Below the pieces are notes generated by a model. The model was not told the DNA's origin. It saw only the letters and a list, made by a program, of their open reading frames with translations, and did not search any database. The position numbers and the translations under genes are program-made. Below are positions 23,837 through 35,801 of a stretch of 36,329 bases of DNA, piece after piece. Position 1 is the stretch's first letter. Each line of letters begins with the position of its first letter. The DNA comes from a virus (Duplodnaviria > Heunggongvirae > Uroviricota > Caudoviricetes), in the IMG/VR virus record IMGVR_UViG_2737471834_000007; one strand, written 5' to 3'.

Positions 23837-24878
23837 AAAGAATAAACAGTGCCGGCAGCAAGGTGATGTCGCAGTGAATACGCAAGGACAGTCAGCAGGC
23901 AAAAAAATGAGCCTGATTGAATTTGGTGATCCCGAGCCAGTTGCTGCCTGGGGAAGTTATAACGGCACATTCTGGGACGGTTATAACGGCTATTACCAGC
24001 CGCCTGTTGAACGGATGGACCTTGCCGTACTGGCCAATATTGCCCCCTATCATGGGGCAGTGTTACGTGCGCGGGTTAATATGATTATGCAGGGATTTAA
24101 AAGTGGTGGCGGCATGAGTCACGCGGCAATGACAGCAGCTGTCACCAACCTGCTGATATTCGGTGATGTCGGACTGCTGAAAGTGCGCAATGGTTTCGGG
24201 AAAGTGGTCAGGCTTGTCACGCTACCCTCCCTGTATCTGCGCCGCAACAGTAACGGTGGAACGGTGATCGTGCAGATGGCTATGGATGACACGGTATATG
24301 GACCTGATGAAGTGGTCTTTGTTGCCATCTACGATCCGCAACAACAGGTATATGGGGTTCCGGACTATATCCATGGTATGGAGTCCGCCATGCTTAATGT
24401 GGATGCCACCCGGTTCCGCCGTAAATATTTTAAAAACGGCGCACACCTCGGTTACATTTTATATACCACGGATCCTGATATGTCGCCTGAGCTCGAGGGT
24501 GAGTTTCGTAAAAAAATTGAACAGTCAAAAGGCGCAGGAAATTTTAAATCCATGTTTATTAATATACCCGGAGGGAATGCTGAGGGGGTGAAGGTAATTC
24601 CTGTTGGTGATACCGGTACCAAAGATGAATTTCTGAATATCAAGAATATCAGTGCGCAGGACCAACTTGTTGCGCACCGTTTCCCGCCAGGGCTGGCTGG
24701 CATTATTCCAGCCAATACTGCAGGACTTGGTGATCCGCTCAAATCACGCGAAGCGTATTACCGTGATGAAGTGATCCCTATGCGACGGCTGATAATGGAA
24801 AGTATCAACAGTGACCGTGATATTCTCCGCCTCGGGCGCGTGGTGTTTGACCTTAATTTTGAAGAGCAGGGCAGATAA
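23823..24878 (+). CDS. Portal protein, gpQ-like (351 aa)
   Basis: Follows the large terminase with a 14-nt overlap; size matches P2 gpQ. Confidence 0.75.
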   Translation: MLMTKKNKQCRQQGDVAVNTQGQSAGKKMSLIEFGDPEPVAAWGSYNGTFWDGYNGYYQPPVERMDLAVLANIAPYHGAVLRARVNMIMQGFKSGGGMSHAAMTAAVTNLLIFGDVGLLKVRNGFGKVVRLVTLPSLYLRRNSNGGTVIVQMAMDDTVYGPDEVVFVAIYDPQQQVYGVPDYIHGMESAMLNVDATRFRRKYFKNGAHLGYILYTTDPDMSPELEGEFRKKIEQSKGAGNFKSMFINIPGGNAEGVKVIPVGDTGTKDEFLNIKNISAQDQLVAHRFPPGLAGIIPANTAGLGDPLKSREAYYRDEVIPMRRLIMESINSDRDILRLGRVVFDLNFEEQGR

Positions 24879-24943
24879 TGTGCTGTACAGGACGAGAGCG
24901 GTTAAAATCACCACGACCGAAGCAATCTGTCGGGAGGTGGAAC

Positions 24944-25201
24944 ATGCGCAGACAAAAGGCACGGTGTCATTGCTGTGGTTCGGTGGCCATTATTGAAAAA
25001 ACCGTATGGAAAACGGACCATTTTGCTGATGTATATTACCGCTGTACCCGGCTTGACTGTGGACATACCTGGGTGATGAATCTGACCTATTCTCATACGC
25101 TTGTCCCAAGCGGTCTGGATAACGGTGTACTGAAATTACTGATAGAACGTATGCGCCCGGAAGAAAAGCAGATGGCGCTGGAATTGCTGCAGGCTGGATG
25201 A
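24944..25201 (+). CDS. Ogr/Delta-family zinc-finger late transcription activator (85 aa)
   Basis: C-x2-C ... C-x4-C arrangement (CHCCGS ... CTRLDCGH); GGGAGGTGG SD before the ATG at 24944. Confidence 0.6.
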   Translation: MRRQKARCHCCGSVAIIEKTVWKTDHFADVYYRCTRLDCGHTWVMNLTYSHTLVPSGLDNGVLKLLIERMRPEEKQMALELLQAG

Positions 25202-25279
25202 GTGTCTGTACATAGATTTGTGTAATTGTCTGATTGTGCATGTCCTGCTCAGCCATTTTCTGACGCGCTTTGCTTGTCC

Positions 25280-25324
25280 AACCGGGAACAGGCGCACAAA
25301 GAATTTGCGCACCTGTTCCCGGTT
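25280..25324. terminator. Bidirectional intrinsic terminator between convergent genes
   Basis: AACCGGGAACAGG ... CCTGTTCCCGGTT (13-bp arms) with T-rich sequence following on the + strand. Confidence 0.6.
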
Positions 25325-25332
25325 CTCTTTAA

Positions 25333-25824
25333 TTATTTCTTGTTATGCCATCTGACCACACCACCTGCCAGGATAACGGCTTTTTCGATATCCCGTTCAT
25401 AGCGTAAAGGCTGAAACACACCGTCGATGAAGTATTCACTGATTTCTGGCAGGGAAACCGTAAAGCTCCTTGATGTGTTTTTGTGCAGTAAGACTGCATG
25501 CTTTAGTGCATCCTGGGCTTTCTGGAATTTCAGCGCATAGTCAGTCGCGATTTCTTCCAGCTCAGCGATGCGCAGCTTCGCTTTTCCCAGTTCTTTTTCT
25601 GCTTTATCTGCACGTTCAGCCTCGGACCCGGCGAGCTGAAAGTAATGCCACTTTTCTCCTTCGTACAGGTTAACGTAATCCCTGAGTCTGTCCCGTTCGT
25701 CCAGGAGAGCCAGTACCACCGATGGTGTGGTCTTAATACGAAATGCCAGAAGTTTCTTTGGTGTTGCCACTTTTTCTGTTGCCGTTGCTGCGTCACGCAA
25801 CGCCTGATAATCGACTTCGTTCAT
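25333..25824 (-). CDS. Hypothetical coiled-coil protein (163 aa from MNEVDYQ)
   Basis: ATG at 25824 overlaps the upstream stop (ATGA); heptad-like KAEKELGKAKLRIAELEE segment. Confidence 0.5.
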   Translation of the reverse strand: MNEVDYQALRDAATATEKVATPKKLLAFRIKTTPSVVLALLDERDRLRDYVNLYEGEKWHYFQLAGSEAERADKAEKELGKAKLRIAELEEIATDYALKFQKAQDALKHAVLLHKNTSRSFTVSLPEISEYFIDGVFQPLRYERDIEKAVILAGGVVRWHNKK

Positions 25825-26252
25825 TGTGGTGTTCTCCGGTGTTGTGTCGGCCTGGCGAATGAATTGCGTTGTGGTGAAAAGACCATTCCCGCCAGCGCGG
25901 CCTTGCGATTGACGACATTCAGTGTTCTGGCCAGCGCTGCGTTGTGTTTGTGTGCCTGTTCTTCGTGGTACTTCTGCATGATTTTCCCTGCAGGTGTGCA
26001 CGGCTCCGACTCCTCCGGCGAACGGCGGGTACGAACTGAGACAATCCAGCTCTTATGTTCATTTCCCGGCCGTCTGTTGAGTATATCTGTAATGGTGGTT
26101 TTCGTGGTGCGGTCAGGATTGACCACTGTGATTTCCAGTTCATCGCCGGGTTGTGGTCTCGTGGCAATGTTGTTCAGAGTCAGTAATGGCGTGCGCTGGC
26201 GCATCATGTTGTCAAAGCGCTGGCGCTGCATGGTGCAGTAAAAACGGGTCAT
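25821..26252 (-). CDS. Hypothetical protein (143 aa) translationally coupled to the replication gene
   Basis: ATGA overlap with the gpA-like stop at 26249-26252. Confidence 0.5.
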   Translation of the reverse strand: MTRFYCTMQRQRFDNMMRQRTPLLTLNNIATRPQPGDELEITVVNPDRTTKTTITDILNRRPGNEHKSWIVSVRTRRSPEESEPCTPAGKIMQKYHEEQAHKHNAALARTLNVVNRKAALAGMVFSPQRNSFARPTQHRRTPQ

Positions 26253-28786
26253 TGTGGCCCCTCCGTTTTCTGTGCAGGGTTGAGCTCAATGCGGCGGGTG
26301 TTGTCGTTCCAGTACGCGGTGCGCCCGTCATCCAGGAGAACACGGGCCCCGTTACGCACGGAAATAATGGCTGCGTCAGGCAGTTGTACGCCCAGTGCAT
26401 CGAGTTCGCGGGTGATTTGTGCGGTGATGTGTGGCTCTGCTGTCAGTGCGACATCCACGCGAACGCCGTCAGTGGGCGCACTGATGCCGCCGTTTTTCAC
26501 GGTTTCTGTGTCAGGTGGCGGGTTTTTCAACTGCCGGGTGAGTTGTTTTCTCTGTACCGGTGTCAGCGACCTCAGCCATTCGGTTAAATCACCTTCCGGC
26601 AGGATAAGTCGTTGCTCCCTGCGTCTGTCCTGTTTCCCTTCTGGCGTGGCATTACTGGTTAAATTCTGGTCATGGGGACAGTTATTGCCACGAGTCCAAG
26701 GGGCGACAAAGTCGCCCTCAACGTCAAAATCAGTTTCGCTGGCGCTGTCTTCACCTTCCGGCTTACGTCTGACCAGTTTCCAGGTGTCCGGATGGGTGCA
26801 TATGGTGTACTGCTCCCCGAGTGACGGTGCACGGACACCGTAAATACGTTGCGGAAATTCGCCGTAGTCGTTGGCCTCTTCGGCGGTTTCGTATGCGGTG
26901 CGGACCAGGTACGTGTTGCGGGGAATGAGTACACCACCCTGCCTGGTGATGTAGGTGGCAAAACATCCCACATCAGCGGCGGCCAGTATGGCGTCAATGT
27001 CTTCATTATCGAGGCGCTGTGGTGCCTTCGGGTTACGGGCTATCTGCCCGGCAAGACGGCGGAGTTCGCGCCATACCTGGCGTGGCGGGATACCGAAGAA
27101 CTGGAACTGGCGGATGCGGTGAAGGGCCGCCCAGCCGATGGCGTTCTCCACGGTTTCGGCCATGGTTTTACCTGATTCCCTGTCGGAGTATGGTTTGCCG
27201 GTTTTCGGGTCATTTCCCATAAATACGCTGGCGTCCAGGTTCTTACCGATATAGGTCGCGATATAGCTTGCCGGGGTGCCTTTTGCCGGGTCGATTTTTT
27301 CGCATTTAAAACGCGGGGAGATATCATCACCCAGCTCTGCGCAGTCCTCCCTGATGGCGGCGTTGCGCATGATTTCAGTGATACGGGCTTCGTTTTCCTG
27401 GCTGGTGAATACCAGCATGTGCCAGTGCGGTGTGCCGTCGTGGTGAGGCTCCACGGTGCGTACACCGTACCAGCCCAGCCCGGCTTTGCTGATGATCTTG
27501 CGGACGGCAGCGAAAAATCTGTAAACCAGGTAATCACTGGCATCGCGTACCGTTGCCCCGCAGAATTTCTGGTTCAGGCTGCCGTCATCGTTCACGCTGT
27601 GAAAACGGGAAGGGGCGGTGACGGTGACGAAAAACGCCACATCGCCGCGCGCTTCGGCGACCTGCTCCATTCCCCGGACGCAGGCCATCATCTCGTTGCG
27701 ACGGTTGCGCGGATTGGCGAGTCCGGCCCAGTAGATATCCTCAAGGCTGAACCGCTCTCCCTCTTCGTTCTCGACATCCCAGGCTTTCAGAAAATCGCGG
27801 GTGCGCTGGCGTTTTTCGCGCCAGTCCAGTAACGCTTCATGGCTGATGTATACCGACTCCTTACGTGACACCAGACCTGCGGCGCGTAACAGCTCTTCCC
27901 GCCAGATGTCGCGAAGGTGTCTTAACTGACCGTTCCACCAGTTCGCGCAGGAAAGACGCATGACCGCACCCGGCACCTGTTCCAGGTCGGGGGCGGTGCG
28001 GCGGTCGGGTCTGATTTCCAGCGACGGCCAGCAGGGCGGGGTGATACCCAGTTTTAACGCCATATGTGCCAGCGGCTGGTAGGTCAGCAGCCAGGTGTAC
28101 AGGTCATCATCCCCCTTTCCGGTCCTTTTGATGGCCTCATCACATGCGCGCTCCAGTGCGGCGGAAAATGCGGTGGCGGTCAGGGTGGCAAGGCGCTGAA
28201 TGTCGTCGCGCTCCAGTTGCGGGAGTATCAGGAGTTCATCCAGTCGTTCGCGGGCAGCGGTGGCCTTAAATGCTGTAGTGGCAAACCGTTCATTCACCTG
28301 TCTGATGCGTTTCAGACGGGCACGCAGCCCGTGACGAACGAAGTTATCCGCTGCGTATGCGCTGTTGTTCTTAAGTTCTTTCTGACGGGCATCGTCCTGT
28401 TTGCGTCTGAAGAACGCCAGCCTGCGAATCAACGGTCCGGCGAGAAAGGCCGGAAGGGCGCGCAGCTCTGCCATGGCCTCGGATACCAGCGTGGGTGGGT
28501 TATCGCGTCTGTACCTGGCCAGCTTTTCCAGCCGTATCTGCCGCTCTTCGTCGTGATGAAGGTGCGAATTAATCTGCCTGCCTTTTTCTGTGCATGTCAG
28601 GAAGACGACGGTTTCTTCATCCAGCCGGGCATTAATCCGGATGTCTTCGTTGATGTAGCTCTGAATTGCCCTGCGTAATGCCGTCGGCTTCTGTGGTAAC
28701 GCTCTGCCGAAGGTTTCCGGGTCGATAACGGGCAGTGGAGCGTTCCATGACCAGGCCCATTCGCGGTTGGTGTTCATGGCGATCAC
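26249..28786 (-). CDS. Rolling-circle replication initiator/endonuclease, gpA-like (845 aa)
   Basis: HUH motif (TPHWHMLVF) and paired catalytic tyrosines (SYIATYIGK), characteristic of P2 A-type initiators. Confidence 0.8.
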   Translation of the reverse strand: MIAMNTNREWAWSWNAPLPVIDPETFGRALPQKPTALRRAIQSYINEDIRINARLDEETVVFLTCTEKGRQINSHLHHDEERQIRLEKLARYRRDNPPTLVSEAMAELRALPAFLAGPLIRRLAFFRRKQDDARQKELKNNSAYAADNFVRHGLRARLKRIRQVNERFATTAFKATAARERLDELLILPQLERDDIQRLATLTATAFSAALERACDEAIKRTGKGDDDLYTWLLTYQPLAHMALKLGITPPCWPSLEIRPDRRTAPDLEQVPGAVMRLSCANWWNGQLRHLRDIWREELLRAAGLVSRKESVYISHEALLDWREKRQRTRDFLKAWDVENEEGERFSLEDIYWAGLANPRNRRNEMMACVRGMEQVAEARGDVAFFVTVTAPSRFHSVNDDGSLNQKFCGATVRDASDYLVYRFFAAVRKIISKAGLGWYGVRTVEPHHDGTPHWHMLVFTSQENEARITEIMRNAAIREDCAELGDDISPRFKCEKIDPAKGTPASYIATYIGKNLDASVFMGNDPKTGKPYSDRESGKTMAETVENAIGWAALHRIRQFQFFGIPPRQVWRELRRLAGQIARNPKAPQRLDNEDIDAILAAADVGCFATYITRQGGVLIPRNTYLVRTAYETAEEANDYGEFPQRIYGVRAPSLGEQYTICTHPDTWKLVRRKPEGEDSASETDFDVEGDFVAPWTRGNNCPHDQNLTSNATPEGKQDRRREQRLILPEGDLTEWLRSLTPVQRKQLTRQLKNPPPDTETVKNGGISAPTDGVRVDVALTAEPHITAQITRELDALGVQLPDAAIISVRNGARVLLDDGRTAYWNDNTRRIELNPAQKTEGPQ

Positions 28787-29196
28787 TCCCCGGCAGTTGC
28801 CCGTTGAAACGCGGCACGGTACAGCACAAGAAGGCGCCGGTATTCGTCAATAAAGCCTTCTGCCGTTTTAATTCCTTTCACTGCCACGCTGTGGGTTGTC
28901 ATGTCCAGTACGAGCGCCATTTCTGACGATGACCAGCTGATAACGCTGCTGTCGAGTCCGTTGATGTGGAACAGGCCCAGATTCAGGCTGTGATTCAGGT
29001 CTCTGACGTCAACACGGTAACGGTCATCAACGGTGAAGGAGAAATCACCGGATGTGGCGGCGCTGCTGGCTGCCTGTTTACAGGCGAGGCGGTAATAGTC
29101 GTGCAGATCATTGAGACGGGAAGCGAGGCGTGGATCCACCGCCCACATCCAGTTAAAAAAATCCTGAATATCTGAAAGTCCCTTAACGTTCTTCAT
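28783..29196 (-). CDS. Hypothetical early protein (137 aa)
   Basis: CGGAGG SD; ATGA overlap with the replication gene start. Confidence 0.5.
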   Translation of the reverse strand: MKNVKGLSDIQDFFNWMWAVDPRLASRLNDLHDYYRLACKQAASSAATSGDFSFTVDDRYRVDVRDLNHSLNLGLFHINGLDSSVISWSSSEMALVLDMTTHSVAVKGIKTAEGFIDEYRRLLVLYRAAFQRATAGE

Positions 29197-29264
29197 GTGA
29201 ACCTCCGGTAACAGACGTGCGGAAGCCTCCCGCGCACGGGTGCGGGATGGCTTCAGGATATTGA

Positions 29265-29492
29265 TTAGTGGTGGTATTGCTGGCTGATGAGGTCCTGCAG
29301 CTCCGCGAGATCATCCGCCAGGTAGCTGAAGACTGCCGCGTAATACCCGGCAGCGATACCGCCGTTAAGCCGATGTAATACGTTTGACTGCATGATGAAG
29401 GCGACAGATGCAGCCCGATGGAGTCTGCGGTTGATTTCGGTGCGGATGTGAAGGCGCTCAGCGCGGGCGCGCTGTTGTTTGCGGTTTGCCAT
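29265..29492 (-). CDS. Hypothetical small basic protein (75 aa)
   Basis: GAAGAGG SD upstream of the ATG; Arg-rich N-terminus. Confidence 0.45.
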   Translation of the reverse strand: MANRKQQRARAERLHIRTEINRRLHRAASVAFIMQSNVLHRLNGGIAAGYYAAVFSYLADDLAELQDLISQQYHH

Positions 29493-29780
29493 GGTATGGC
29501 CTCTTCGTTTGTAAGTTTGGGAAACTCACCATCCAGAGGTTCCAAGCTCGGGGTGGCGAGACGTACGGGGTTGGAACTACCGGAAAACGAAGAAACCGGC
29601 CCGACCAGAGTCGGCCCCGTACGCCCCGCCATAATTTGGGTGCGAAAACGGCGTGGCGATACGGTACGCACAAAAAAACCGCTGGCGCGGCTGTGCGCTT
29701 CGTTTGTCGGCGGGGTTCCAATCCCGGCACCCGTTTTATGAGGTGCAGCGGGAATGTAACCCGACAGATTGCGGCATGGC

Positions 29781-29840
29781 AAGCGGTTTTTTTGTGTGTG
29801 CATGATGATCACTCAGTCCGGTAACAGTTCACGGAGCACG
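29781..29840. repeat. Direct repeat copy A (~57-60 bp) at the 3' end of the methyltransferase gene
   Basis: About 85% identical to 30876-30932 by hand alignment (AAGCGGTTTTT..GTGTGTGCATG...ACTCAGTCCGGTA.CAGTTC). Confidence 0.6.
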
Positions 29841-30828
29841 GCGTCAGCTGTTGTTCTGTGGTGTAAGAGGTAAACATCGCGCTGTAAGTTGTATCTCCCG
29901 TCACCGTGCCGCAGTCCGGACAGTAGCCGCCGCCATGGCGACCACAGGCGGCGCACTGTCTCAGGGTGGCGATAACCTCCGGTGCTGGTTTTCGGGTTTT
30001 TGCGCCAACGCTTCGAGGTGCCTGGATGCGGTTCATCCGGTAGCCCTGATAAATGCGCCGGGTTTCCGGTGTGTCGGAGCCGGAAATGGTTATGCTGGTC
30101 ATTCCACCTGTTTCCTGTGAAAGACGGTCAAGCGCTGCTCTCAGGCGAACGTGTTCGTCCTTCGTGAAGGGGTTTTCGTAGGCGGTGAAATTGTCCCGGC
30201 CACTGAATGGCAGGTAAGGGGGATCGCAGTACACGCAAAGCGTACTACCTATGCTGAACAGGTGACTGGCAGTGTTCAGCGTTTTCTGAAAATCGCCATG
30301 AACAAGCAGTGTTCTGGTGCTGTTTGCCTTGTCTGCAAATGCGCGGATTTCCCGTTCAGGGAAGTAGGGAGCCCGGTAGCCACCGAATGGGACATTAAAA
30401 TCCCCTTTTTCATTCACCCGGTACAGGCCATTAAAGCAGTGCCTGTTGAGGTATAAAAACATGGCGGCCAGCCGTAATTCGCGACGGTCGCTTATTCCCG
30501 TGCTCAGGAATGCATGATTCTCTGCATTAAAGGTGTTACGGATAGCGAGATAGTCAGTCCTGTTGTTGTGCTCCAGGAACAGGCCTTTTGCTTCGTTGAT
30601 CAGACTGTCGGTGTTGTCCCGTGCTGCCCGACAGAAATTAATCAGCGCACCATTGGAATCACCCGGGATGTAGCGGCTGTAACTGGTGTTCATGAATACC
30701 GATGCGCCACCCACGAACGGCTCAACCAGGCAGTCAGCTTCTGGCAGGTGCGCCTTCAGTGTGTTCATGATGCGGCTTTTCCCGCCCACCCATTTCAGCG
30801 GTGTGCCGGATAACAGTTCTTTGCTCAT
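29809..30828 (-). CDS. Dam-family N6-adenine DNA methyltransferase (339 aa), orphan
   Basis: AdoMet-binding motif (EPFVGGASVF) N-terminal and catalytic DPPY C-terminal (alpha-class order); Cys-rich C-terminal tail; no restriction endonuclease partner seen. Confidence 0.8.
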   Translation of the reverse strand: MSKELLSGTPLKWVGGKSRIMNTLKAHLPEADCLVEPFVGGASVFMNTSYSRYIPGDSNGALINFCRAARDNTDSLINEAKGLFLEHNNRTDYLAIRNTFNAENHAFLSTGISDRRELRLAAMFLYLNRHCFNGLYRVNEKGDFNVPFGGYRAPYFPEREIRAFADKANSTRTLLVHGDFQKTLNTASHLFSIGSTLCVYCDPPYLPFSGRDNFTAYENPFTKDEHVRLRAALDRLSQETGGMTSITISGSDTPETRRIYQGYRMNRIQAPRSVGAKTRKPAPEVIATLRQCAACGRHGGGYCPDCGTVTGDTTYSAMFTSYTTEQQLTPCSVNCYRTE

Positions 30829-30896
30829 AACGCGGCCTCTTTGTTACAGGTTTCGTGTGCCAACAAATCCCATGAAAGCGGTTTTTGTGTGTGCAT
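30825..30896 (-). CDS. Candidate upstream leader ORF (23 codons) coupled to the methyltransferase start
   Basis: ATG at 30896; its TGA overlaps the methyltransferase ATG (ATGA); lies inside repeat copy B. Confidence 0.25.
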   Translation of the reverse strand: MHTQKPLSWDLLAHETCNKEAAL

Positions 30897-30932
30897 GGCG
30901 ATTACTCAGTCCGGTAGCAGTTCGTACAGCAC
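30876..30932. repeat. Direct repeat copy B, spanning the 3' end of the HTH gene and the methyltransferase leader
   Basis: See copy A. Confidence 0.6.
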
Positions 30933-31460
30933 AATGTCGTCGACAGTGCGGCGGCGACTGTAAAGAAAATATGCTGTGTTAGTGGTCGCTTTTATTTGCA
31001 GTGTGTGATTGATGTGTTTTGCTATCGCGGCGAATGTCATACACTGTTCATCACGTAGTTCTGTTACCAGTTCCACCAGGCGATCGCTGTATCTGGTCAG
31101 GTGGTGCAGATCTCCGCATTTCTGCAGTCTGTAACCACGTTTACTCAGGTGTTCCTGTACTGTGCGACGGGTACATCCCACCATGACTGCCATTTCCTGC
31201 GCTGTTCTGGTGTGACGGTTTCTGATGAGAAAATTGATTTCTTCTCTGCTCAGCGTTTTTCTCTTGCGACCAATTAATCCACGATCACGTAAAACACGAA
31301 TTCTGTGCATAACTGCGCTGCGGGTGCGTTGAATTCGTTCAGCCATCTGGTATGTGCTGTTTTCCTGATAAAGCGAGGTAAGCATCTCGTCTTCCTGCCG
31401 TGTCCATGGTTTCACGTGCGCAGGGGCTTTGCCTGGTATCCCCATTGGTTGAAGTATCAT
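30906..31460 (-). CDS. Putative DNA-binding protein with helix-turn-helix-like segments (184 aa)
   Basis: ACGGAGGT SD; basic segments of HTH character (STYQMAERIQRTRSAVMHRIRVL; RTAQEMAVMVGCTRRTVQEHL). Confidence 0.5.
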   Translation of the reverse strand: MILQPMGIPGKAPAHVKPWTRQEDEMLTSLYQENSTYQMAERIQRTRSAVMHRIRVLRDRGLIGRKRKTLSREEINFLIRNRHTRTAQEMAVMVGCTRRTVQEHLSKRGYRLQKCGDLHHLTRYSDRLVELVTELRDEQCMTFAAIAKHINHTLQIKATTNTAYFLYSRRRTVDDIVLYELLPD

Positions 31461-31486
31461 CGTGATAACCTCCGTGCCTGTGCCGG

Positions 31487-31699
31487 TTATTCGGTCGGGT
31501 TCAGGGTGTAATCAATGGCGTTTTCAATACGGCGTTTAAGCTCGCGGTGGATCTCACCCGGTGTTACTGGTGCGCCAGGACCGCTCAGCGTTGCCGTGAA
31601 GTCGTCGATTTCCTCCATCAGCAGATTGCGGAGTACAGCGATGTGGTGGCGTACATCTTTTCCTGGTTTGCGTGCGTTGGTGGTGTACTTGCTGATCAT
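31487..31699 (-). CDS. Hypothetical small protein (70 aa from MISKY)
   Basis: ATG at 31699 overlaps the upstream stop (ATGA). Confidence 0.4.
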   Translation of the reverse strand: MISKYTTNARKPGKDVRHHIAVLRNLLMEEIDDFTATLSGPGAPVTPGEIHRELKRRIENAIDYTLNPTE

Positions 31700-31947
31700 G
31701 GTTGCAGTTCTCCATAGCCGTGCCTTTCTGATTTCCATGCTCCCCGGATGGTCATCACTTCGCGTACGGTATTTGCGACTGCCGTGATTTGTGTGCTGTC
31801 AGTCAGATGAATGTAGAGATAATCAGCGTCTGACGGGCACGGCGTGGTTGTTGTGATCAAATAACTTTCCACCATGAATTCGCGGCCCACGGCATCGGTG
31901 AAATGCGTCAGCATGGTTCGCCTTGTGGCAGTGAATATGTTGTTCAT
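31696..31947 (-). CDS. Hypothetical small protein (83 aa)
   Basis: AAAGGGG SD 8 nt upstream of the ATG. Confidence 0.45.
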   Translation of the reverse strand: MNNIFTATRRTMLTHFTDAVGREFMVESYLITTTTPCPSDADYLYIHLTDSTQITAVANTVREVMTIRGAWKSERHGYGELQP

Positions 31948-31959
31948 CGTCCCGCCCCT

Positions 31960-32238
31960 TTATGCTGAAAAGCGACCTGACTGTGCCCGGAGTTCTGCCA
32001 GTTCGCGCTCAAGGCGGAGGGTTTTCGCATGGAGTGCGCCGATGATGTTGTTTGCTGACGTCATGAGCATGTTTTCTATTTGCACCGTCTGGCTGACAAA
32101 AAATGATGGGCTGTTATCGTCGTCCATTTCCGATAGCAATTTCTTTCTTGCATTAATCAGTTCTGCCAGCGCTTTTTGTGTGGCTGTGATAACTTCCTTG
32201 CTGGTGAACATTTCGCTGATTTTTTCATTGCTGCACAT
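31960..32238 (-). CDS. Hypothetical coiled-coil protein (92 aa)
   Basis: GGAG SD; helix-prone C-terminus. Confidence 0.45.
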   Translation of the reverse strand: MCSNEKISEMFTSKEVITATQKALAELINARKKLLSEMDDDNSPSFFVSQTVQIENMLMTSANNIIGALHAKTLRLERELAELRAQSGRFSA

Positions 32239-32319
32239 TGTTCTTTCTCCGTTTTAAAGGTGAGTGAATCTCTCCGCTGTTGCGGATTGTTTGCTGGTTT
32301 TCCTGTTTAATCTGGCGTT

Positions 32320-32445
32320 TTATTTACGGCGTTTTTCGCCAGTAAATAATGATTCGATATCTTTTACGGAATCAACAATTCTTACGATGCCAATCGCGCA
32401 GAGCACGGAAATAATAAGAATCAGCCATGAGATAAATATATTCAT
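32320..32445 (-). CDS. Hidden small membrane peptide (about 41 aa), below the ORF-track size cutoff
   Basis: MNIFISWLILIISVLCAIGIVRIVDSVKDIESLFTGEKRRK: one transmembrane segment and a basic C-terminus; ATG overlaps the upstream stop (ATGA). Confidence 0.4.
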   Translation of the reverse strand: MNIFISWLILIISVLCAIGIVRIVDSVKDIESLFTGEKRRK

Positions 32446-32687
32446 GCTGCCACCTGTGAATAATAAGGTTCGATAATGTCAGAACCGTTAAACAGTTCTG
32501 CCACAATGCTTTTTAATTCTTCCTGTGCTTCTTTGTCGTCGCTGGCAAAGGCGTGAATAAACAGTCCATAGATAGCCTGTTCCATTAATTCGCGTGCGGT
32601 TACGTCTTCCTTCACTCCCAGCTCTGCCAGGCGGAAGTGATAACGTTCCAGTGCATGGTTCACCAGTGTTTTATAGGCTTCGTTCAT
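32442..32687 (-). CDS. Hypothetical small acidic protein (81 aa)
   Basis: GGAGGA SD 8 nt upstream of the ATG. Confidence 0.5.
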   Translation of the reverse strand: MNEAYKTLVNHALERYHFRLAELGVKEDVTARELMEQAIYGLFIHAFASDDKEAQEELKSIVAELFNGSDIIEPYYSQVAA

Positions 32688-32706
32688 GGTCTGAATCCTC
32701 CGTTTA

Positions 32707-33186
32707 TCACCTGCGATATTGAGGATGCTGAAAACTACGACCGCTGATTAATCGGTCTGCTGTTCTTAATGCTTCGTGCAATGTGAAATCCTGTCCGAAC
32801 TGATCATCACCGCGAGTCAGGTAATAACAGGTGTTTCCGGTAATCGGGTTGCGTGCGCCTCTGTGTATGACAATTCCGGCATCATTAATCAGCCAGGTGT
32901 GTTTACCTGTTTGTTTAACCAGATACCCGTCAGGTGTGGCGTGTGTTTCCTGCAGGCTGTAGCGTTTTGTGCTGGCAGCACTGGTGGAGAAACGGTTAGC
33001 GTGGCGTTCTGCATTGCTGCGGAAGCGCTGCTGTGAAGAATTGTGCTGTTGCTTCATACAAAAATATCCCGCTGTTGTTGCGAATTTGTGCCGGGTTTTA
33101 GCCATGCCCGGCGCATGGTTTTGTGGTATTTTTCCACCGCCTGCAGTCTTGAAGGGGCTGTGAATGGCGCGTGTTTTACTAACCAC
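32707..33186 (-). CDS. Hypothetical protein (start uncertain; candidates at GTG 33186, ATG 33105 and ATG 33057)
   Basis: Open frame only; no candidate start has a clear SD. Confidence 0.35.
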   Translation of the reverse strand: MVSKTRAIHSPFKTAGGGKIPQNHAPGMAKTRHKFATTAGYFCMKQQHNSSQQRFRSNAERHANRFSTSAASTKRYSLQETHATPDGYLVKQTGKHTWLINDAGIVIHRGARNPITGNTCYYLTRGDDQFGQDFTLHEALRTADRLISGRSFQHPQYRR

Positions 33187-33199
33187 AAAGGAATAAAAT

Positions 33200-33382
33200 A
33201 TGTCCTATGATGAAAAGGTTATTGATGCGCTAAATGCGGCAATTTCTGTATTAGAGAAAGCGCCGGTTAATCCTCCGAATAAAGGAGAACCATCAAATAC
33301 CATTCGTAAGCTTATGCGCGAAGTGCGTAAACTCACGCTAAAAAAATATCCTCAGGCAAGCAAATATATTTTTCCTGATTAA
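33200..33382 (+). CDS. Small + strand protein (60 aa) convergent with the early operon
   Basis: AAGGAA SD 6 nt upstream of the ATG; its stop overlaps the stop of the convergent 135-aa gene (TTAA). Confidence 0.4.
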   Translation: MSYDEKVIDALNAAISVLEKAPVNPPNKGEPSNTIRKLMREVRKLTLKKYPQASKYIFPD

Positions 33383-33786
33383 TTAACTTCTGTGCCGGAG
33401 ATTTTCTCTGGCACATTTCCGACCTCAATAACCATGTTGTCATTACTTAAAATTTGCCGATAAAGTTCAAAGGCTTCTTCTGCAGGGAAACGGAGCATGA
33501 CACCGCATGCAGGTTCTAAAATCATTCCAATAGTTCCTTTAGCATCGTCACGACAAAAATGGCCGTATTCATCGTCAGGATGCAGGATGACATCTTTCAA
33601 ATCTTCGCCATTCTGAAGCTTTGATTTTAATGCCATCAGACCAGCGAACGTTCTGTGTAATTCGTGGTAGTCAACGCTGATTTCAATCTGCGGTTTTCCC
33701 GGGAAAACCAGCAAAAGCTTCTGGTGTGGTTTTTCGTTTTTCAGATTTTCCAGTTGTTCCAGTAGTACTTCATCTTCGTGATTCAT
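33379..33786 (-). CDS. Hypothetical early protein (135 aa)
   Basis: AAAAGAGG SD upstream of the ATG; acidic; first gene after the Cox-like gene. Confidence 0.5.
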   Translation of the reverse strand: MNHEDEVLLEQLENLKNEKPHQKLLLVFPGKPQIEISVDYHELHRTFAGLMALKSKLQNGEDLKDVILHPDDEYGHFCRDDAKGTIGMILEPACGVMLRFPAEEAFELYRQILSNDNMVIEVGNVPEKISGTEVN

Positions 33787-33890
33787 TCTACTGTTACCTC
33801 TTTTAACTCATTCAGGCAGTGTGATATAGCCCACTAACTGCCCGTGTTTGAAATAACGGCGACGAAAATAATGTGTTAACAATAAAGCAA

Positions 33891-34250
33891 TCATGCGGCC
33901 CTCGCTTTTTTAGTTCTGCTTCGTTCGCTATGTGTTGGCTTAAATAAAAACAGACGGTTTTCCCAGTCGTGCCATTCTTGTGGAGCATTTTCGATCAAGC
34001 GATCACATGCTTCATCCCACGCTTTTCTGTTGATGTAGAGTTCAGCGTTTCCGCCTGGTTTGAGAGGGTCTGCCATATACACGGCTGGCAATTTCCCTGC
34101 TTTAGCCATGCTCACAATGGCGTTAACTGTTTTGCCGATATACATCGCAAACCCTTCTTTTGACAGGAGATGCGAGGGATTTTCTGAAAGTCGAATTTCT
34201 TCACGTTCACGTGCTTTGCGTCCTGTTTTTTGATACTCCCCCTCTGGCAT
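33891..34250 (-). CDS. Cox/Apl-like excisionase/transcriptional regulator (start uncertain: 34250, 34145 or GTG 34355)
   Basis: YIGKTVNAIVSMAKAGKLPAVYMADP resembles P2 Cox (LIGKSTGAVRRMIDKGKLPVIDMTDP) as recalled from memory; divergent from the C repressor gene. Confidence 0.55.
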   Translation of the reverse strand: MPEGEYQKTGRKAREREEIRLSENPSHLLSKEGFAMYIGKTVNAIVSMAKAGKLPAVYMADPLKPGGNAELYINRKAWDEACDRLIENAPQEWHDWENRLFLFKPTHSERSRTKKARAA

Positions 34251-34430
34251 TTCTGACAGGTGATCGCATCGTGTTCCGCAAAGTGACTCAGGCGCGTTTT
34301 GAGTGCTTTCTTGCATCTGATATCCTCCGCCATTGGTGCTCTTTCTAATTGGCACTAGTTGGAACCACTTAGAACATTTGTTTGCTGTTAATATGTGGTG
34401 TTAATCTACACATATGTAGGAGTTTGTCAA
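34251..34430. promoter_or_regulatory. Lysis-lysogeny switch region between the cox-like and C genes, with candidate operator repeats
   Basis: Inverted repeat ATATGTG-N11-CACATAT (34391-34415) and repeated GTTAAT elements just upstream of the C start. Confidence 0.45.
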
Positions 34431-34724
34431 ATGGACATTCCGCAAAAAATTCGCGTCATGCGCAAATCTGAAGATCTCACTCAGCGGGAATTCGCTGATA
34501 TGATTGGAATTTCTTATTCTGCTCTGACCAGTTATGAGTATGGTCGTAACCTTCCTGGCCTTGAGATCACTATCAAGCTTTTCAAGCACCCGAGATTTTC
34601 TAAATACCGCGACTGGTTTTTGTTCGATGAGGTCGAACCAAAGGCCGGGCAGGTGGTACCGGCTCTCGCACACATTGGGCAAAGCGAAGCGGAATCGTCC
34701 CGCTCCGGCAAGAAGACTGGCTAA
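34431..34724 (+). CDS. C: Immunity repressor, P2 C-like (97 aa from the ATG at 34431)
   Basis: C-terminal PALAHIGQSEAESSRSGKKTG matches P2 C (PALAHFGQ...SGQKTG) as recalled from memory; HTH segment near the N-terminus; AGGAG SD. Confidence 0.7.
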   Translation: MDIPQKIRVMRKSEDLTQREFADMIGISYSALTSYEYGRNLPGLEITIKLFKHPRFSKYRDWFLFDEVEPKAGQVVPALAHIGQSEAESSRSGKKTG

Positions 34725-34790
34725 CGGTCCATCTGGCCTTTATTTCTCAAAATTGTGATCAAGATGATGTTTTCATTGGGGGGCTTCCTT

Positions 34791-35801
34791 ATGTCGATTA
34801 AGAAGCTCGCTGATGGCAAATACTGTGTGGACGTGCGGCCTGCTGGATCTGAAGGAAGAAGATTTCGGCGGCGATTTCCTACCCGTGGTGAAGCGGCGAT
34901 GTATGAACGCCATGTTCTGACGCATTATCACGATAAGGACTGGGTAGAAAAACCCATTGAACGTAAAGCGTTAAGCGATCTTCTGGAACTGTGGTGGGTG
35001 TACCACGGTAAGAATCATCGTTATGGCGCGATGAATCGGGTCAGAATTGAAGCGGTTCTTCGTGATATGCGAGAGCTTGGTATTAACAGAAGTGACCATT
35101 TAACCCGAAAAAATATTATCAGATATCGCCTTGAATTAATGAATCGTGGAATTAAGCAGTCAACGGTAAATCGTTATTGCGCAATGATGAGCGGTTTCTT
35201 TGAAAAGCTGATTGATGTTGAAGAGTTTGTGGGTGATAACCCATTTCACGAGATACGCAAGCTAACAATTAATCAGCCTGAAATGGCTTATCTTGCACAT
35301 GATGATATTCCCAGGCTAACCGCGCTTTTATCTGGCGATAATCTTAAGGCTGTATTGTTAAGCCTGGCCACTGGCGGTCGTTGGGGTGAAGTTGCCAATA
35401 TTAAAGGTGAACACATAATTGGTGGGAAGGTTATTTTCATGGAGACAAAGAATGGATCTAGGCGGGTTATTCCTATAGCTAAAGATCTTGAATCTCTGAT
35501 TAAAGTAAAGGCGACGGGAAGATTAATAAAACCCAGTTATGCAACTGTCAGGAGTGCGATAAGGAGTGTTCGACCTGATTTGCCAGTCGGTCAGTCTGTG
35601 CATGTTTTACGACACACATTTGCAACTCATTTTATGATTAATGGGGGGAATATTATTACCCTGCAGCGTATTTTAGGACATAGCACAATCCAGCAAACAA
35701 TGACCTATGCGCACTTTGCACCTGATTATCTCCAGGATGCGGTAAGGTTCAATCCTGTCGCGGAGTTGTCCAGATATTGTCCACAAATAGGGACTAAATA
35801 G
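34791..35801 (+). CDS. int: Tyrosine integrase, P2 Int-like (336 aa from the ATG at 34791; track ORF starts at GTG 34755)
   Basis: MSIKKLADGKYCVDVRP matches the P2 Int N-terminus (MAIKKLDDGRYEVDIRP) as recalled from memory; catalytic HVLRHTFATHFMINGG and LGHSTIQQTMTYAHFAPDYLQDA motifs. Confidence 0.85.
   Translation: MSIKKLADGKYCVDVRPAGSEGRRFRRRFPTRGEAAMYERHVLTHYHDKDWVEKPIERKALSDLLELWWVYHGKNHRYGAMNRVRIEAVLRDMRELGINRSDHLTRKNIIRYRLELMNRGIKQSTVNRYCAMMSGFFEKLIDVEEFVGDNPFHEIRKLTINQPEMAYLAHDDIPRLTALLSGDNLKAVLLSLATGGRWGEVANIKGEHIIGGKVIFMETKNGSRRVIPIAKDLESLIKVKATGRLIKPSYATVRSAIRSVRPDLPVGQSVHVLRHTFATHFMINGGNIITLQRILGHSTIQQTMTYAHFAPDYLQDAVRFNPVAELSRYCPQIGTK

Follow-up and report, generated by a model that had tools for sequence, protein, structure and literature searches.

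Independent tail genes of the early operon behind a gpA-like gene in a P2-like Escherichia coli prophage: a predicted ASCH-type protein and an Ead/Ea22-family protein

Introduction

P2-like prophages have a hotspot between gpA and gpQ (Rousset et al. 2022, PMC9122126). Genes found in this interval raise the question of whether they form an exclusion or defence system or belong to the operon in front of them. This question is addressed here for a caudoviral sequence of 36,329 nucleotides (IMG/VR record IMGVR_UViG_2737471834_000007), the whole of which is referred to as the window. Two small genes, named X and Y, lie between the gpA-like gene and the portal gene in the gene order of the window. 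A sequence-only reading had placed them at the P2 hotspot, and the locus does fall within the documented gpA-gpQ interval. It had further proposed the two genes as candidates for an accessory function, on the model of the exclusion genes tin and old in P2. The analysis presented here favours another answer. With a probability of roughly 0.7, X and Y are independent tail genes of the early (replication) operon in a P2-like E. coli prophage.

Results and discussion

Layout of the locus

The minus strand carries the gpA-like gene, then X, then Y and then a hairpin with a stem of 21 bp. They close an operon which begins with cox, continues through the gene of a Dam-type methylase and ends with a 137-aa gene, gpA, X, Y and the hairpin. 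The features are as follows.

34403-34430, minus strand: Pe-like promoter upstream of cox (TTGACA-16-TAGATT, 10/12; a match to the consensus only)
26249-28786, minus strand: gpA-like replication (HUH nicking) endonuclease, 845-aa ORF (Pfam PF05840, Phage_GPA, E 1.6e-104; phrog_91, 'nicking at origin of replication')
26249-26265, minus strand: gpA/X coupling junction, read directly in the sequence (GGAGGGG, spacer, ATGA), where the gpA stop overlaps the X start
25821-26252, minus strand: gene X, 143 aa, pI 11.0, conserved in the lineage and coupled to gpA
26028-26252, minus strand: X residues 1-75, predicted ASCH/DUF3850-like (PUA-like) beta-barrel with the canonical motif missing
25881-25994, minus strand: X residues 87-124, long conserved C-terminal helix (DSSP) after a conserved Pro/Glu-rich linker
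25821-25824, minus strand: X/Y ATGA junction, which is a module boundary too
25333-25824, minus strand: gene Y, 163 aa from its ATG, an Ead/Ea22-like family protein (Pfam PF13935) and swappable early accessory gene
25336-25470, minus strand: Y residues 119-163, C-terminal domain LPEISEYFIDGVFQPLRYERDIEKAVILAGG, unlike the lambda Ea22 C-terminal domain
25280-25324, minus strand: 21-bp hairpin closing the Y module at its 3' end
24944-25201, plus strand: Ogr/Delta zinc-finger late activator (Pfam PF04606, E 1.6e-11), convergent, the other boundary of the interval

The arrangement of two genes behind the gpA-like gene, both joined by ATGA overlaps, had been noticed earlier and is borne out. Positions 26249-26252 and 25821-25824 read tcat on the plus strand, i.e. 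ATGA on the coding strand, and Shine-Dalgarno-type sequences stand ahead of both starts (GGAGGGG for X, GGAG for Y). This coupling is not peculiar to X and Y. The same style runs along the whole operon, with 4-nt overlaps also at the junction of the 137-aa gene and gpA (28783-28786) and at that of Dam and a 209-aa ORF (29809-29812).

The gpA-like gene is called at 830-842 aa in relatives. By gpA, the nearest isolated phages are P88-like members of Xuanwuvirus, with about 51% amino acid identity across residues 9-755. Relatives of the Ogr/Delta gene are called at 85 aa, and GGGAGG precedes the window ATG at 24944. For Y, a 222-aa version obtained as a mechanical ORF from a GTG at 26001 was rejected. 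The ATG at 25824 is taken as the true start, since MNEVDYQALRDAA agrees with the conserved N-terminus of the family, MSEINYQALREAA, and since relatives are called at 163 aa. A 198-aa antisense ORF (25645-26241) is likely a shadow of X and Y. A search of the whole window for a P2-type cos sequence, with up to three mismatches allowed, returned none.

Hairpin and transcription

The hairpin behind Y had been taken for a strong terminator. Its strength is evident, as it forms a perfect 21-bp stem including G-U pairs, with a folding energy of -41.9 kcal/mol on the minus-strand RNA (z -6.4) and -34.5 kcal/mol on the plus-strand RNA. However, a U-tract is missing behind it on the strand of X and Y, a U-rich tail being found instead on the ogr strand, and a scan for consensus terminators picked it up in neither orientation. 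This strong hairpin is thus no canonical intrinsic terminator for X and Y. The hairpin is identical in one relative (locus L009), along with Y. The hairpin region is unmatched in complete E. coli genomes, so that it is not a REP-like repeat in those genomes.

A consensus scan found no promoter-like site in 24800-26400 and none on the coding strand from Y to 29700. The best promoter-like site in 25200-34800 is the Pe-like site, which is flanked by the cox and C-type repressor genes. The early transcript of X and Y would start at this Pe-like site, and their transcription would depend on Pe alone. An internal promoter may be active in lysogens.

Conservation of gene X

Within this gpA lineage, gene X shows the behaviour of a core gene. 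It stands directly after gpA with a GGAGG..ATGA junction in loci L001-L006 and L017, and its coupling to gpA is the same in all of the relatives whose junction was read (8/8). In about 41 complete E. coli genomes, X lies beside a gene annotated as 'replication endonuclease'. Identity to the window copy amounts to 57-77% across relatives, while that of gpA goes down to 52%. X is a genuine coding gene, since pairwise dN/dS lies at about 0.1-0.4 across nine homologues, and its full-length ORF is intact in all relatives examined. Additionally, the alignment holds 58 invariant columns, which include surface-type residues and the C-terminal helix. Conserved columns in the C-terminal part are H96, E97, H103, N104, L107, R109, N115, K117, A118 and A119.

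The X family is narrow. It comprises 17 clusters at 90% identity, and all of those with a source name come from E. coli. An exhaustive profile search among 1.84 billion proteins yielded only three representatives at 50%. Searches with X returned no match in 50,697 phage records (tblastn), in the PDB (by sequence) or in a genome set with one representative of each species. X matches phrog_14984 over its full length and has no match in Pfam, PADLOC or NCBIfam. Furthermore, X is missing after gpA in the 186-like and ParM/P88-like lineages, and it can therefore not be essential to gpA-type replication in general. In the ParM lineage gpA is longer, and fusion of an X-like domain into it was considered; a Pfam search gave no such domain. 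A fourth match in the profile search was a weak one, to a 2173-aa repeat protein.

Predicted fold of X and comparison with P2 Orf91

Residues 1-75 of X are modelled as an ASCH/DUF3850 (PUA-like) barrel, and the pLDDT of this N-terminal domain is about 90. By this predicted structure, X belongs to the PUA-like beta-barrels of ASCH type. When the model was searched with Foldseek against BFVD, the significant matches included phage DUF3850 proteins, and further DUF3850/ASCH proteins came just short of the 0.001 line. On the basis of the model, phrog_14984, which is 'hypothetical' in all named source records encountered, can now be described as ASCH/PUA-like.

The closest known parallel is P2 Orf91 (NP_046796), a DUF3850/ASCH protein. 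By position and predicted structure, X is the counterpart of P2 orf91 and not of tin or old. Like orf91, X directly follows the gene of the replication endonuclease, its start overlaps the stop of that gene in an ATGA behind a GGAG-type Shine-Dalgarno sequence, and it is conserved together with gpA. The products of both genes are small, with an N-terminal PUA-like barrel of ASCH type (about 75 residues; predicted in X) plus a C-terminal extension. X is 34 residues longer than Orf91, and the conserved Pro/Glu linker and the long, amphipathic-looking helix set it apart. The X family is apparently limited to one E. coli prophage lineage, whereas DUF3850 proteins occur in hundreds of phages.

The two proteins share no detectable sequence similarity. 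P2 Orf91 matches both DUF3850 (E 1e-16) and ASCH (E 2e-10), whereas X has no match to PF04266 or PF12961 even at E values up to 1. The hhalign probability is 0.2% both against Orf91 alone and against an alignment of three sequences. Moreover, the GxKxxExR motif after helix 1 is not present in X. In an ungapped comparison anchored on a shared GD turn, which is not a structure-based alignment, EGKKRAEFR of Orf91 faces RQRTPLLTL of X. The link between X and Orf91 thus rests on a structure predicted from an alignment only 15 sequences deep, together with position. The analogy yields no mechanism for X, because P2 orf91 is listed as a gene of unknown function (PMC3091744).

Gene Y as a member of the Ead/Ea22 family

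Y is a true Ead/Ea22-family protein, with an N-terminus like that of lambda Ea22, central helices and a different C-terminal domain. It scores 38.9 bits with Pfam PF13935 (Ead_Ea22) against a gathering cutoff of 27 (E 1.6e-9). The related proteins fall into 848 clusters, and close homologues are annotated as ead or Ea22-like with PF13935. In comparison with lambda Ea22, BLASTP gave 41% identity for residues 1-51 (E 4e-8), and hhalign gave a probability of 98.1% for residues 1-118. Y has no match in PADLOC at E values up to 1 and none in NCBIfam. The label 'coiled-coil' previously given to this protein agrees with helices at residues 35-63 and 69-116 in the AlphaFold2 model, but the model is of low confidence (mean pLDDT 64). 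A sequence search found no PDB match for Y, and a search by fold with this low-confidence model returned only generic helical matches (E above 0.8), which were given no weight. To our knowledge, no mechanism has been established for Ea22 proteins.

Past residue 118, Y does not align to lambda Ea22, and its C-terminal domain is unrelated to the lambda-type domain solved by NMR. C-terminal domains of the Y type occur in P2-like prophages and phage P88_4B11 (72% identity for residues 85-162), and the family alignment around Y is a mosaic. In phage P88_4B11 and in other P2-like lineages, the gpA operon again finishes with an Ea22-like gene. Ead_Ea22 appears at least 81 times in the portion of the Rousset table of gpA-gpQ loci covered here.

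The Ea22 proteins of lambda and Stx phages are tetrameric, pro-lysogenic early gene products with a variable C-terminal domain (PMC10834534, PMC7093339). Y resembles lambda Ea22 in its N-terminal module, its central helices, the variability of its C-terminal domain and its place among small accessory genes in an early operon (PMC10834534). It differs in its genomic place, the end of a replication operon of P2 type as opposed to the lambdoid exo-xis region.

X and Y as independent modules

Y is variable, exchangeable cargo joined at the stop codon of X. In 24 of 28 megablast hits, nucleotide homology to complete E. coli genomes begins precisely at 25821, where the X stop codon opens on the plus strand. 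Within the class of 143-aa X proteins, the ..GGAG..A(A/G)TGA end of the gene is joined to four unrelated downstream genes. Y and its hairpin are absent at the megablast level from the approximately 41 complete E. coli genomes with X. Ea22-like genes with the Y-type C-terminal domain lie three genes away from X in loci L023-25, and Ea22-like genes are also present where gpA has no X behind it (loci L026-28 and phage P88_4B11). Many draft E. coli assemblies do have X and Y together, as adjacent accession numbers and loci L009-L011, L013 and L014 show. Across all the genomes, loci and phages compared, however, the two genes do not consistently co-occur or move together, and X and Y are two independent genes and no functional pair.

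Among isolated phages, the P88-like P88_4B11 (Xuanwuvirus, Peduoviridae) offers a partial parallel. Its gpA operon ends with an Ea22-like gene which carries the Y-type C-terminal domain. However, ParM/StbB partition genes follow gpA there, and a homologue of X is lacking. A megablast search of 50,697 phage records with the X-Y locus returned nothing, and neither did megablast with the capsid-to-portal region.

The comparison of gene content across P2-like prophages divides the earlier proposal of two accessory genes. It holds for Y, which is variable, but not for X, which is present in every examined relative of the lineage. Conservation in all relatives combined with homology to replication accessory proteins had been named as the pattern that would speak against an accessory pair. 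The conservation was observed for X only, among the examined relatives of its gpA lineage.

Functional interpretation and alternatives

X is most likely a small nucleic-acid-binding accessory protein, co-made with the rolling-circle initiator gpA in lytic development. It is translated through its coupling to the gpA stop codon, like orf91 to A in P2. It might bind RNA or single-stranded DNA derived from gpA nicking, and its C-terminal helix could serve as a partner or dimer interface. Binding rather than catalysis is expected because the canonical ASCH motif is replaced. By analogy with Ea22 of lambda and of Stx phages, Y is probably an oligomeric early protein that tilts the lysis-lysogeny decision to host survival and lysogeny. 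As exchangeable cargo, it brings its own 3' hairpin. A narrower proposal, which is doubtful, makes X an obligate partner of the HUH initiator that binds the displaced single strand, primer RNA or Dam-methylated ori DNA, or that tunes the cis-action of gpA. If this proposal is true, PUA-like domains would have a new accessory role in replication, and the narrow, motif-less X family would be a tractable way to approach it.

The reading of X and Y as a two-gene exclusion or defence system in the hotspot, similar to tin and old, is very improbable. It draws on the documented hotspot interval, the variability of Y among relatives, the unassigned mechanisms of both proteins and the recurrence of the arrangement in draft assemblies. 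Remote homology and structure prediction, by which this reading was to be checked, yielded the ASCH/PUA-like model for X and the Ea22 homology of Y but no defence match, and PADLOC matches neither protein. The existence of X without Y in complete genomes and of Ea22-like genes without an adjacent X contradicts a pair, as does the lineage-core behaviour of X, which shares a fold family with P2 orf91. The likeness to tin and old is confined to the interval from gpA to the portal gene. In P2 these genes lie on the opposite strand, have their own transcript starts and act from the prophage, whereas X and Y run in the direction of gpA, are coupled to the early lytic operon, have no promoter-like site of their own in the consensus scan and share an ATGA coupling found along that whole operon. 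Defence-type cargo of relatives (RmrA-like plus PIN; TumE plus HVO_A0114) is distal to X, beside ogr or the portal gene. Nothing points to defence for X or Y. An early counter-defence or host-takeover role of X, and possibly of Y, e.g. through a PUA-like domain which sequesters or recognises modified nucleic acid or a nucleotide signal, is unlikely. In such a role X would aid the phage once induced or infecting, instead of serving replication as such. It would suit a small, basic and fast-evolving early-operon protein whose family occurs in one host species only, and a Dam-type methylase is encoded in the same operon. Additionally, phage DUF3850 fusions have been speculated to serve anti-defence or phage-host interactions (PMC12704722). 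However, X is coupled to gpA and not to the variable cargo, and it is kept across strong gpA divergence, which makes it look internal to the module. X does not conserve the canonical motif of the ASCH pocket, and the literature searched contained no anti-defence ASCH protein. Hardly credible is the idea that X is a decayed orf91-type ASCH remnant, functionless in itself and kept for its coupling signals or as a recombination junction. The loss of the canonical motif and the narrowness of the family would fit such decay, and the 3' end of the 143-aa class does encode the Shine-Dalgarno sequence and start codon of the next gene. Against it stand the low dN/dS over the whole protein, the invariant surface-type and helix residues and the intact reading frames.

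The reading of X and Y as independent operon-tail genes implies that the gpA-gpQ hotspot is not all cargo. The first gene after gpA is lineage-core and is followed by small co-oriented early genes such as the Ea22 gene. Candidate defence systems lie further along, by ogr and the portal gene, and cloning screens of gpA-gpQ intervals should allow for this gene order. X gains a fold assignment and becomes comparable with P2 orf91, which is a small gain in annotation; otherwise the finding is an ordinary one.

The covered portion of the Rousset table names 'DUF3850/ASCH' at least 133 times among gpA-gpQ loci. In Klebsiella phage RCIP0057 and Yersinia phage MHG55, an ASCH gene also stands immediately upstream of gpA. 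The recurrence of ASCH-fold genes beside gpA in Peduoviridae offers a modest, testable starting point for working out what orf91-type genes do. Such genes stand against gpA in several lineages of this family, on the upstream side in RCIP0057 and MHG55, on the downstream side in P2 and, in a diverged form predicted from the model of X, on the downstream side in the window as well.

Organisation of the early operon

Two separate modules close the early operon at its 3' end. They are the genes behind the gpA-like replication endonuclease gene, here named X and Y: X is translationally coupled to gpA, and Y can be exchanged. The window is a P2-like prophage, and its closest isolated phages are P88-like Xuanwuviruses with a gpA about 51% identical. 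On its right side, the genes run in the order integrase, C-type repressor, cox, DUF4761, winged-helix protein, Dam-type methylase, Ash-like protein, 137-aa gene, gpA, X and Y. From cox through Y, every early gene is read from the minus strand. The ogr, portal and terminase genes run towards them from the opposite side, with a GPO-family scaffold gene further out. The relevant features are as follows.

24944-25201, plus: Ogr/Delta gene, convergent to X-Y
25280-25324: 21-bp hairpin 3' of Y
25333-25824, minus: gene Y, 163 aa
25821-26252, minus: gene X, 143 aa
26249-28786, minus: gpA-like ORF, 845 aa (Pfam Phage_GPA, E 1.6e-104; phrog_91, 'nicking at origin of replication')
within 28783-30828, minus: 137-aa gene directly before gpA (phrog_3237)
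29183-29812, minus: Ash-like regulator ORF, 209 aa
29809-30828, minus: D12-class (Dam-type) adenine methylase
34430-34403, minus: best sigma-70-like site of 25200-34800, just upstream of cox

Both the gpA/X and X/Y junctions read ATGA on the coding strand, with Shine-Dalgarno-type stretches ahead of the starts of X (GGAGGGG) and Y (GGAG), which confirms the two coupled genes described in the sequence-only reading. As 4-base overlaps are also found between the 137-aa gene and gpA and between the Dam and Ash-like ORFs, such coupling is an operon-wide style and no mark of an X-Y pair. No promoter-like site was detected near X or Y in a consensus promoter scan. Owing to this and to their coupling to upstream genes, X and Y would be made only when the early promoter fires. 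For Y, the mechanical ORF start at GTG 26001 was rejected, as ATG 25824 yields the conserved family N-terminus and the 163 aa seen in relatives.

The Ogr/Delta ORF can also be read at 24878-25201 (107 aa) from an ATG overlapping the stop of the portal gene. It is called at 85 aa in relatives, a GGGAGG Shine-Dalgarno sequence precedes ATG 24944, and the short 85-aa form is likely the gene. Additionally, the P2 cohesive-end sequence GGCGAGGCGGGGAAAGCAC has no match anywhere in the window at ≤3 mismatches; this lineage, related to P88, must have another cos site.

Conservation of X and the variable interval behind it

X adjoins 'replication endonuclease' in about 41 of 5,426 complete E. coli genomes and lies directly 3' of gpA in every locus of its lineage opened. 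The gpA/X junction was read in eight relatives, and each of them has GGAGG..ATGA there. Identity to the window's copy is 57-77% for X and falls to 52% overall for gpA. The genes that follow X differ from locus to locus.

Genes found after X in the window and in loci of relatives (L numbers)
Window, L009-L011, L013, L014: Ea22-like Y
L001: small hypotheticals, DUF7446, truncated Ea22-like gene
L002, L015: three small genes and a 236-aa gene
L003: 100-aa gene, IS600, then RmrA-like gene and PIN gene
L004: small genes and a 187-aa gene
L005, L006: MarR, with or without SSB
L017: MarR, TumE, HVO_A0114

In 24 of 28 megablast matches, complete genomes are homologous to the window at the nucleotide level from exactly 25821 on, the first base of the X stop codon on the plus strand. 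Moreover, four unrelated genes downstream of the 143-aa class take both their Shine-Dalgarno sequence and their start codon from the last codons of X. With a constant gpA-X linkage and differing genes behind it, X thus has the pattern of a core gene within its own lineage, and the variable region starts right after X.

The last ~90 codons of gpA lie at 26249-26520. P88-like phages align to the window gpA over residues 9-755 only, and across the final 200 residues the gpA of a ParM-lineage locus (L008) has just 20% identity. In the lineage that carries X, this end is 53-81% identical, beside the 57-77% of X.

Gene Y as an Ea22-like protein

Y scores above threshold for Pfam Ead_Ea22 and has 848 related clusters. 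It matches lambda Ea22 with 41% identity over residues 1-51 and an hhalign probability of 98% over residues 1-118. However, its C-terminal domain is unlike that of lambda Ea22, and no solved structure matches it. Across the family, the alignment is strongly mosaic, a make-up likewise described for Stx-phage Ea22 proteins (PMC10834534). These comparisons place Y in a known family as a new member. Elsewhere among P2-like contexts, Ea22-like genes with the C-terminal domain of Y are likewise last in the gpA operon: in L023-25 they stand three genes behind X, and in L026-28 and phage P88_4B11 they follow ParM/StbB, with no X after gpA. Ead_Ea22 is also named at least 81 times in part of the table of gpA-gpQ hotspot loci of P2-like prophages (Rousset et al. 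2022, PMC9122126). X-Y adjacency is repeated in many draft assemblies of the window's particular prophage type; this reflects clonal spread of one arrangement and no conserved pair.

An 83-aa early-region ORF (31487-31738, minus) matches phrog_4144 at positions 31-98, and the Y N-terminus matches it at positions 1-48. This suggests that Ea22-type N-terminal modules may be shuffled onto other small early proteins.

Gene X as an analogue of P2 orf91

X matches only phrog_14984, whose function label is unknown, and has no Pfam, PADLOC or NCBIfam match. The family comprises 17 clusters at 90% identity, all those with a source name being from E. coli. Three representative clusters came out of an exhaustive profile search through 1.84 billion proteins, and X was not found in any of 50,697 phage records by tblastn. 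The family thereby appears very narrow. Pairwise dN/dS is about 0.1-0.4, the protein has a pI of 11.0, and X is, on this footing, a real gene. A 2173-aa protein (P0021) weakly resembles X residues 24-52 in five repeated stretches (E 8e-6), a match that is probably an artefact of composition or repeats.

An AlphaFold2 model of X from a 15-sequence alignment has a mean pLDDT of 81.6, with about 90 for residues 1-75. Two phage DUF3850 proteins are among its significant Foldseek matches in a viral structure library, and more DUF3850 and ASCH proteins fall just below the 0.001 line. Behind the predicted barrel come a Pro/Glu-rich linker and a long helix (87-124), both conserved. P2 orf91 likewise lies directly 3' of A with an ATGA overlap, and the Pfam models DUF3850 (E 1e-16) and ASCH (E 2e-10) both recognise its product; X therefore shares the position, coupling and fold family of Orf91. 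However, hhalign gives a probability of 0.2% for X against Orf91 alone and likewise 0.2% against an alignment of gpA-adjacent DUF3850 proteins, and the Orf91 ASCH motif EGKKRAEFR is replaced by RQRTPLLTL in an ungapped comparison. Hence X is termed, by its model and its position, a structural and positional analogue of Orf91 and no PF04266/PF12961 member; possibly it is a very diverged homologue. This gives a narrow family that had no annotation a description, namely an ASCH-fold analogue of orf91.

Two 93-aa Orf91-like genes, with 39-41% identity to P2 Orf91 by tblastn, were located in other Peduoviridae.

L030:1501-1782: Klebsiella phage RCIP0057, immediately upstream of gpA
L031:1504-1785: Yersinia phage MHG55, immediately upstream of gpA

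Both overlap the gpA start by 10 nt, whereas P2 orf91 is immediately downstream of A; the side of gpA on which an ASCH-type gene lies thus depends on the Peduoviridae lineage. Together with at least 133 mentions of 'DUF3850/ASCH' in part of the table of Rousset et al. (PMC9122126), these cases make the ASCH-gpA association recurrent. It is not universal: in 186-like loci, gpA is followed by a small hypothetical gene and DinI, and in ParM/P88-like loci by partition genes.

Proposed roles and the defence hypothesis

X is very basic, PUA-like and devoid of the ASCH motif. RNA or single-stranded DNA is its most likely binding target, or else a partner bound via its helix; either kind of binding would support gpA-driven rolling-circle replication. 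An early counter-defence or host-interaction role is the alternative for X. By analogy with the Ea22 activity of lambda and Stx phages (PMC7093339, PMC10834534), Y is most likely an early protein that forms oligomers and promotes lysogeny and survival of the host.

X and Y had been proposed as a coupled accessory or defence pair at the P2 hotspot. The location holds, and so does the accessory nature of Y, given the differing genes behind X and the homology break at its stop codon. X, conserved across its lineage, is core-like instead, and the pair is not supported: relatives carry X without Y, and Ea22-like genes occur apart from X or without it. Remote homology placed Y in the Ea22 family, and structure prediction gave X an ASCH/DUF3850-like model with no sequence link to Orf91. 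The defence candidacy was not borne out either. Neither protein matches a PADLOC model; the P2 exclusion genes tin and old are encoded on the other strand and have transcript starts of their own, unlike X-Y in orientation and coupling; and recognisable defence-type genes of relatives are distal to X, beside ogr or the portal gene. TumE and HVO_A0114 genes occupy this distal part in L017 and L018. Other distal genes are listed here.

L003:1455-3108: RmrA-like HTH protein (PADLOC E 3e-35) and PIN-domain protein beside an IS600 copy, E. coli CFSAN029787
L009:5054-5680 (also L010-L014), ogr strand: extra 208-aa gene between the Y hairpin and ogr

The 208-aa gene is carried by the window's closest relatives (X 98% identical). 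The window itself lacks it, having 25202-25279 at the equivalent place, and homology ends ~45 nt past the hairpin. Its product has no significant Pfam match and no PADLOC match. By position and orientation, this gene is a better candidate than X or Y for lysogen-expressed hotspot cargo, and the distal position is the place to look for any such cargo in the interval.

The hairpin behind Y

The hairpin at 25280-25324 folds with -41.9 kcal/mol (z -6.4) as minus-strand RNA and is weaker on the plus strand (-34.5 kcal/mol), where minus-strand G-U pairs turn into C-A mismatches. It has no U-tract on the X-Y strand, and a U-rich tail lies on the strand of the convergent Ogr/Delta gene. The 'strong terminator' claimed earlier is thus a strong hairpin but no canonical intrinsic terminator for X-Y. 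It may act for the convergent transcripts of both strands, or stabilise the early mRNA at its 3' end. The hairpin travels with Y: L009 has it in identical form together with Y, and it was not found in complete E. coli genomes.
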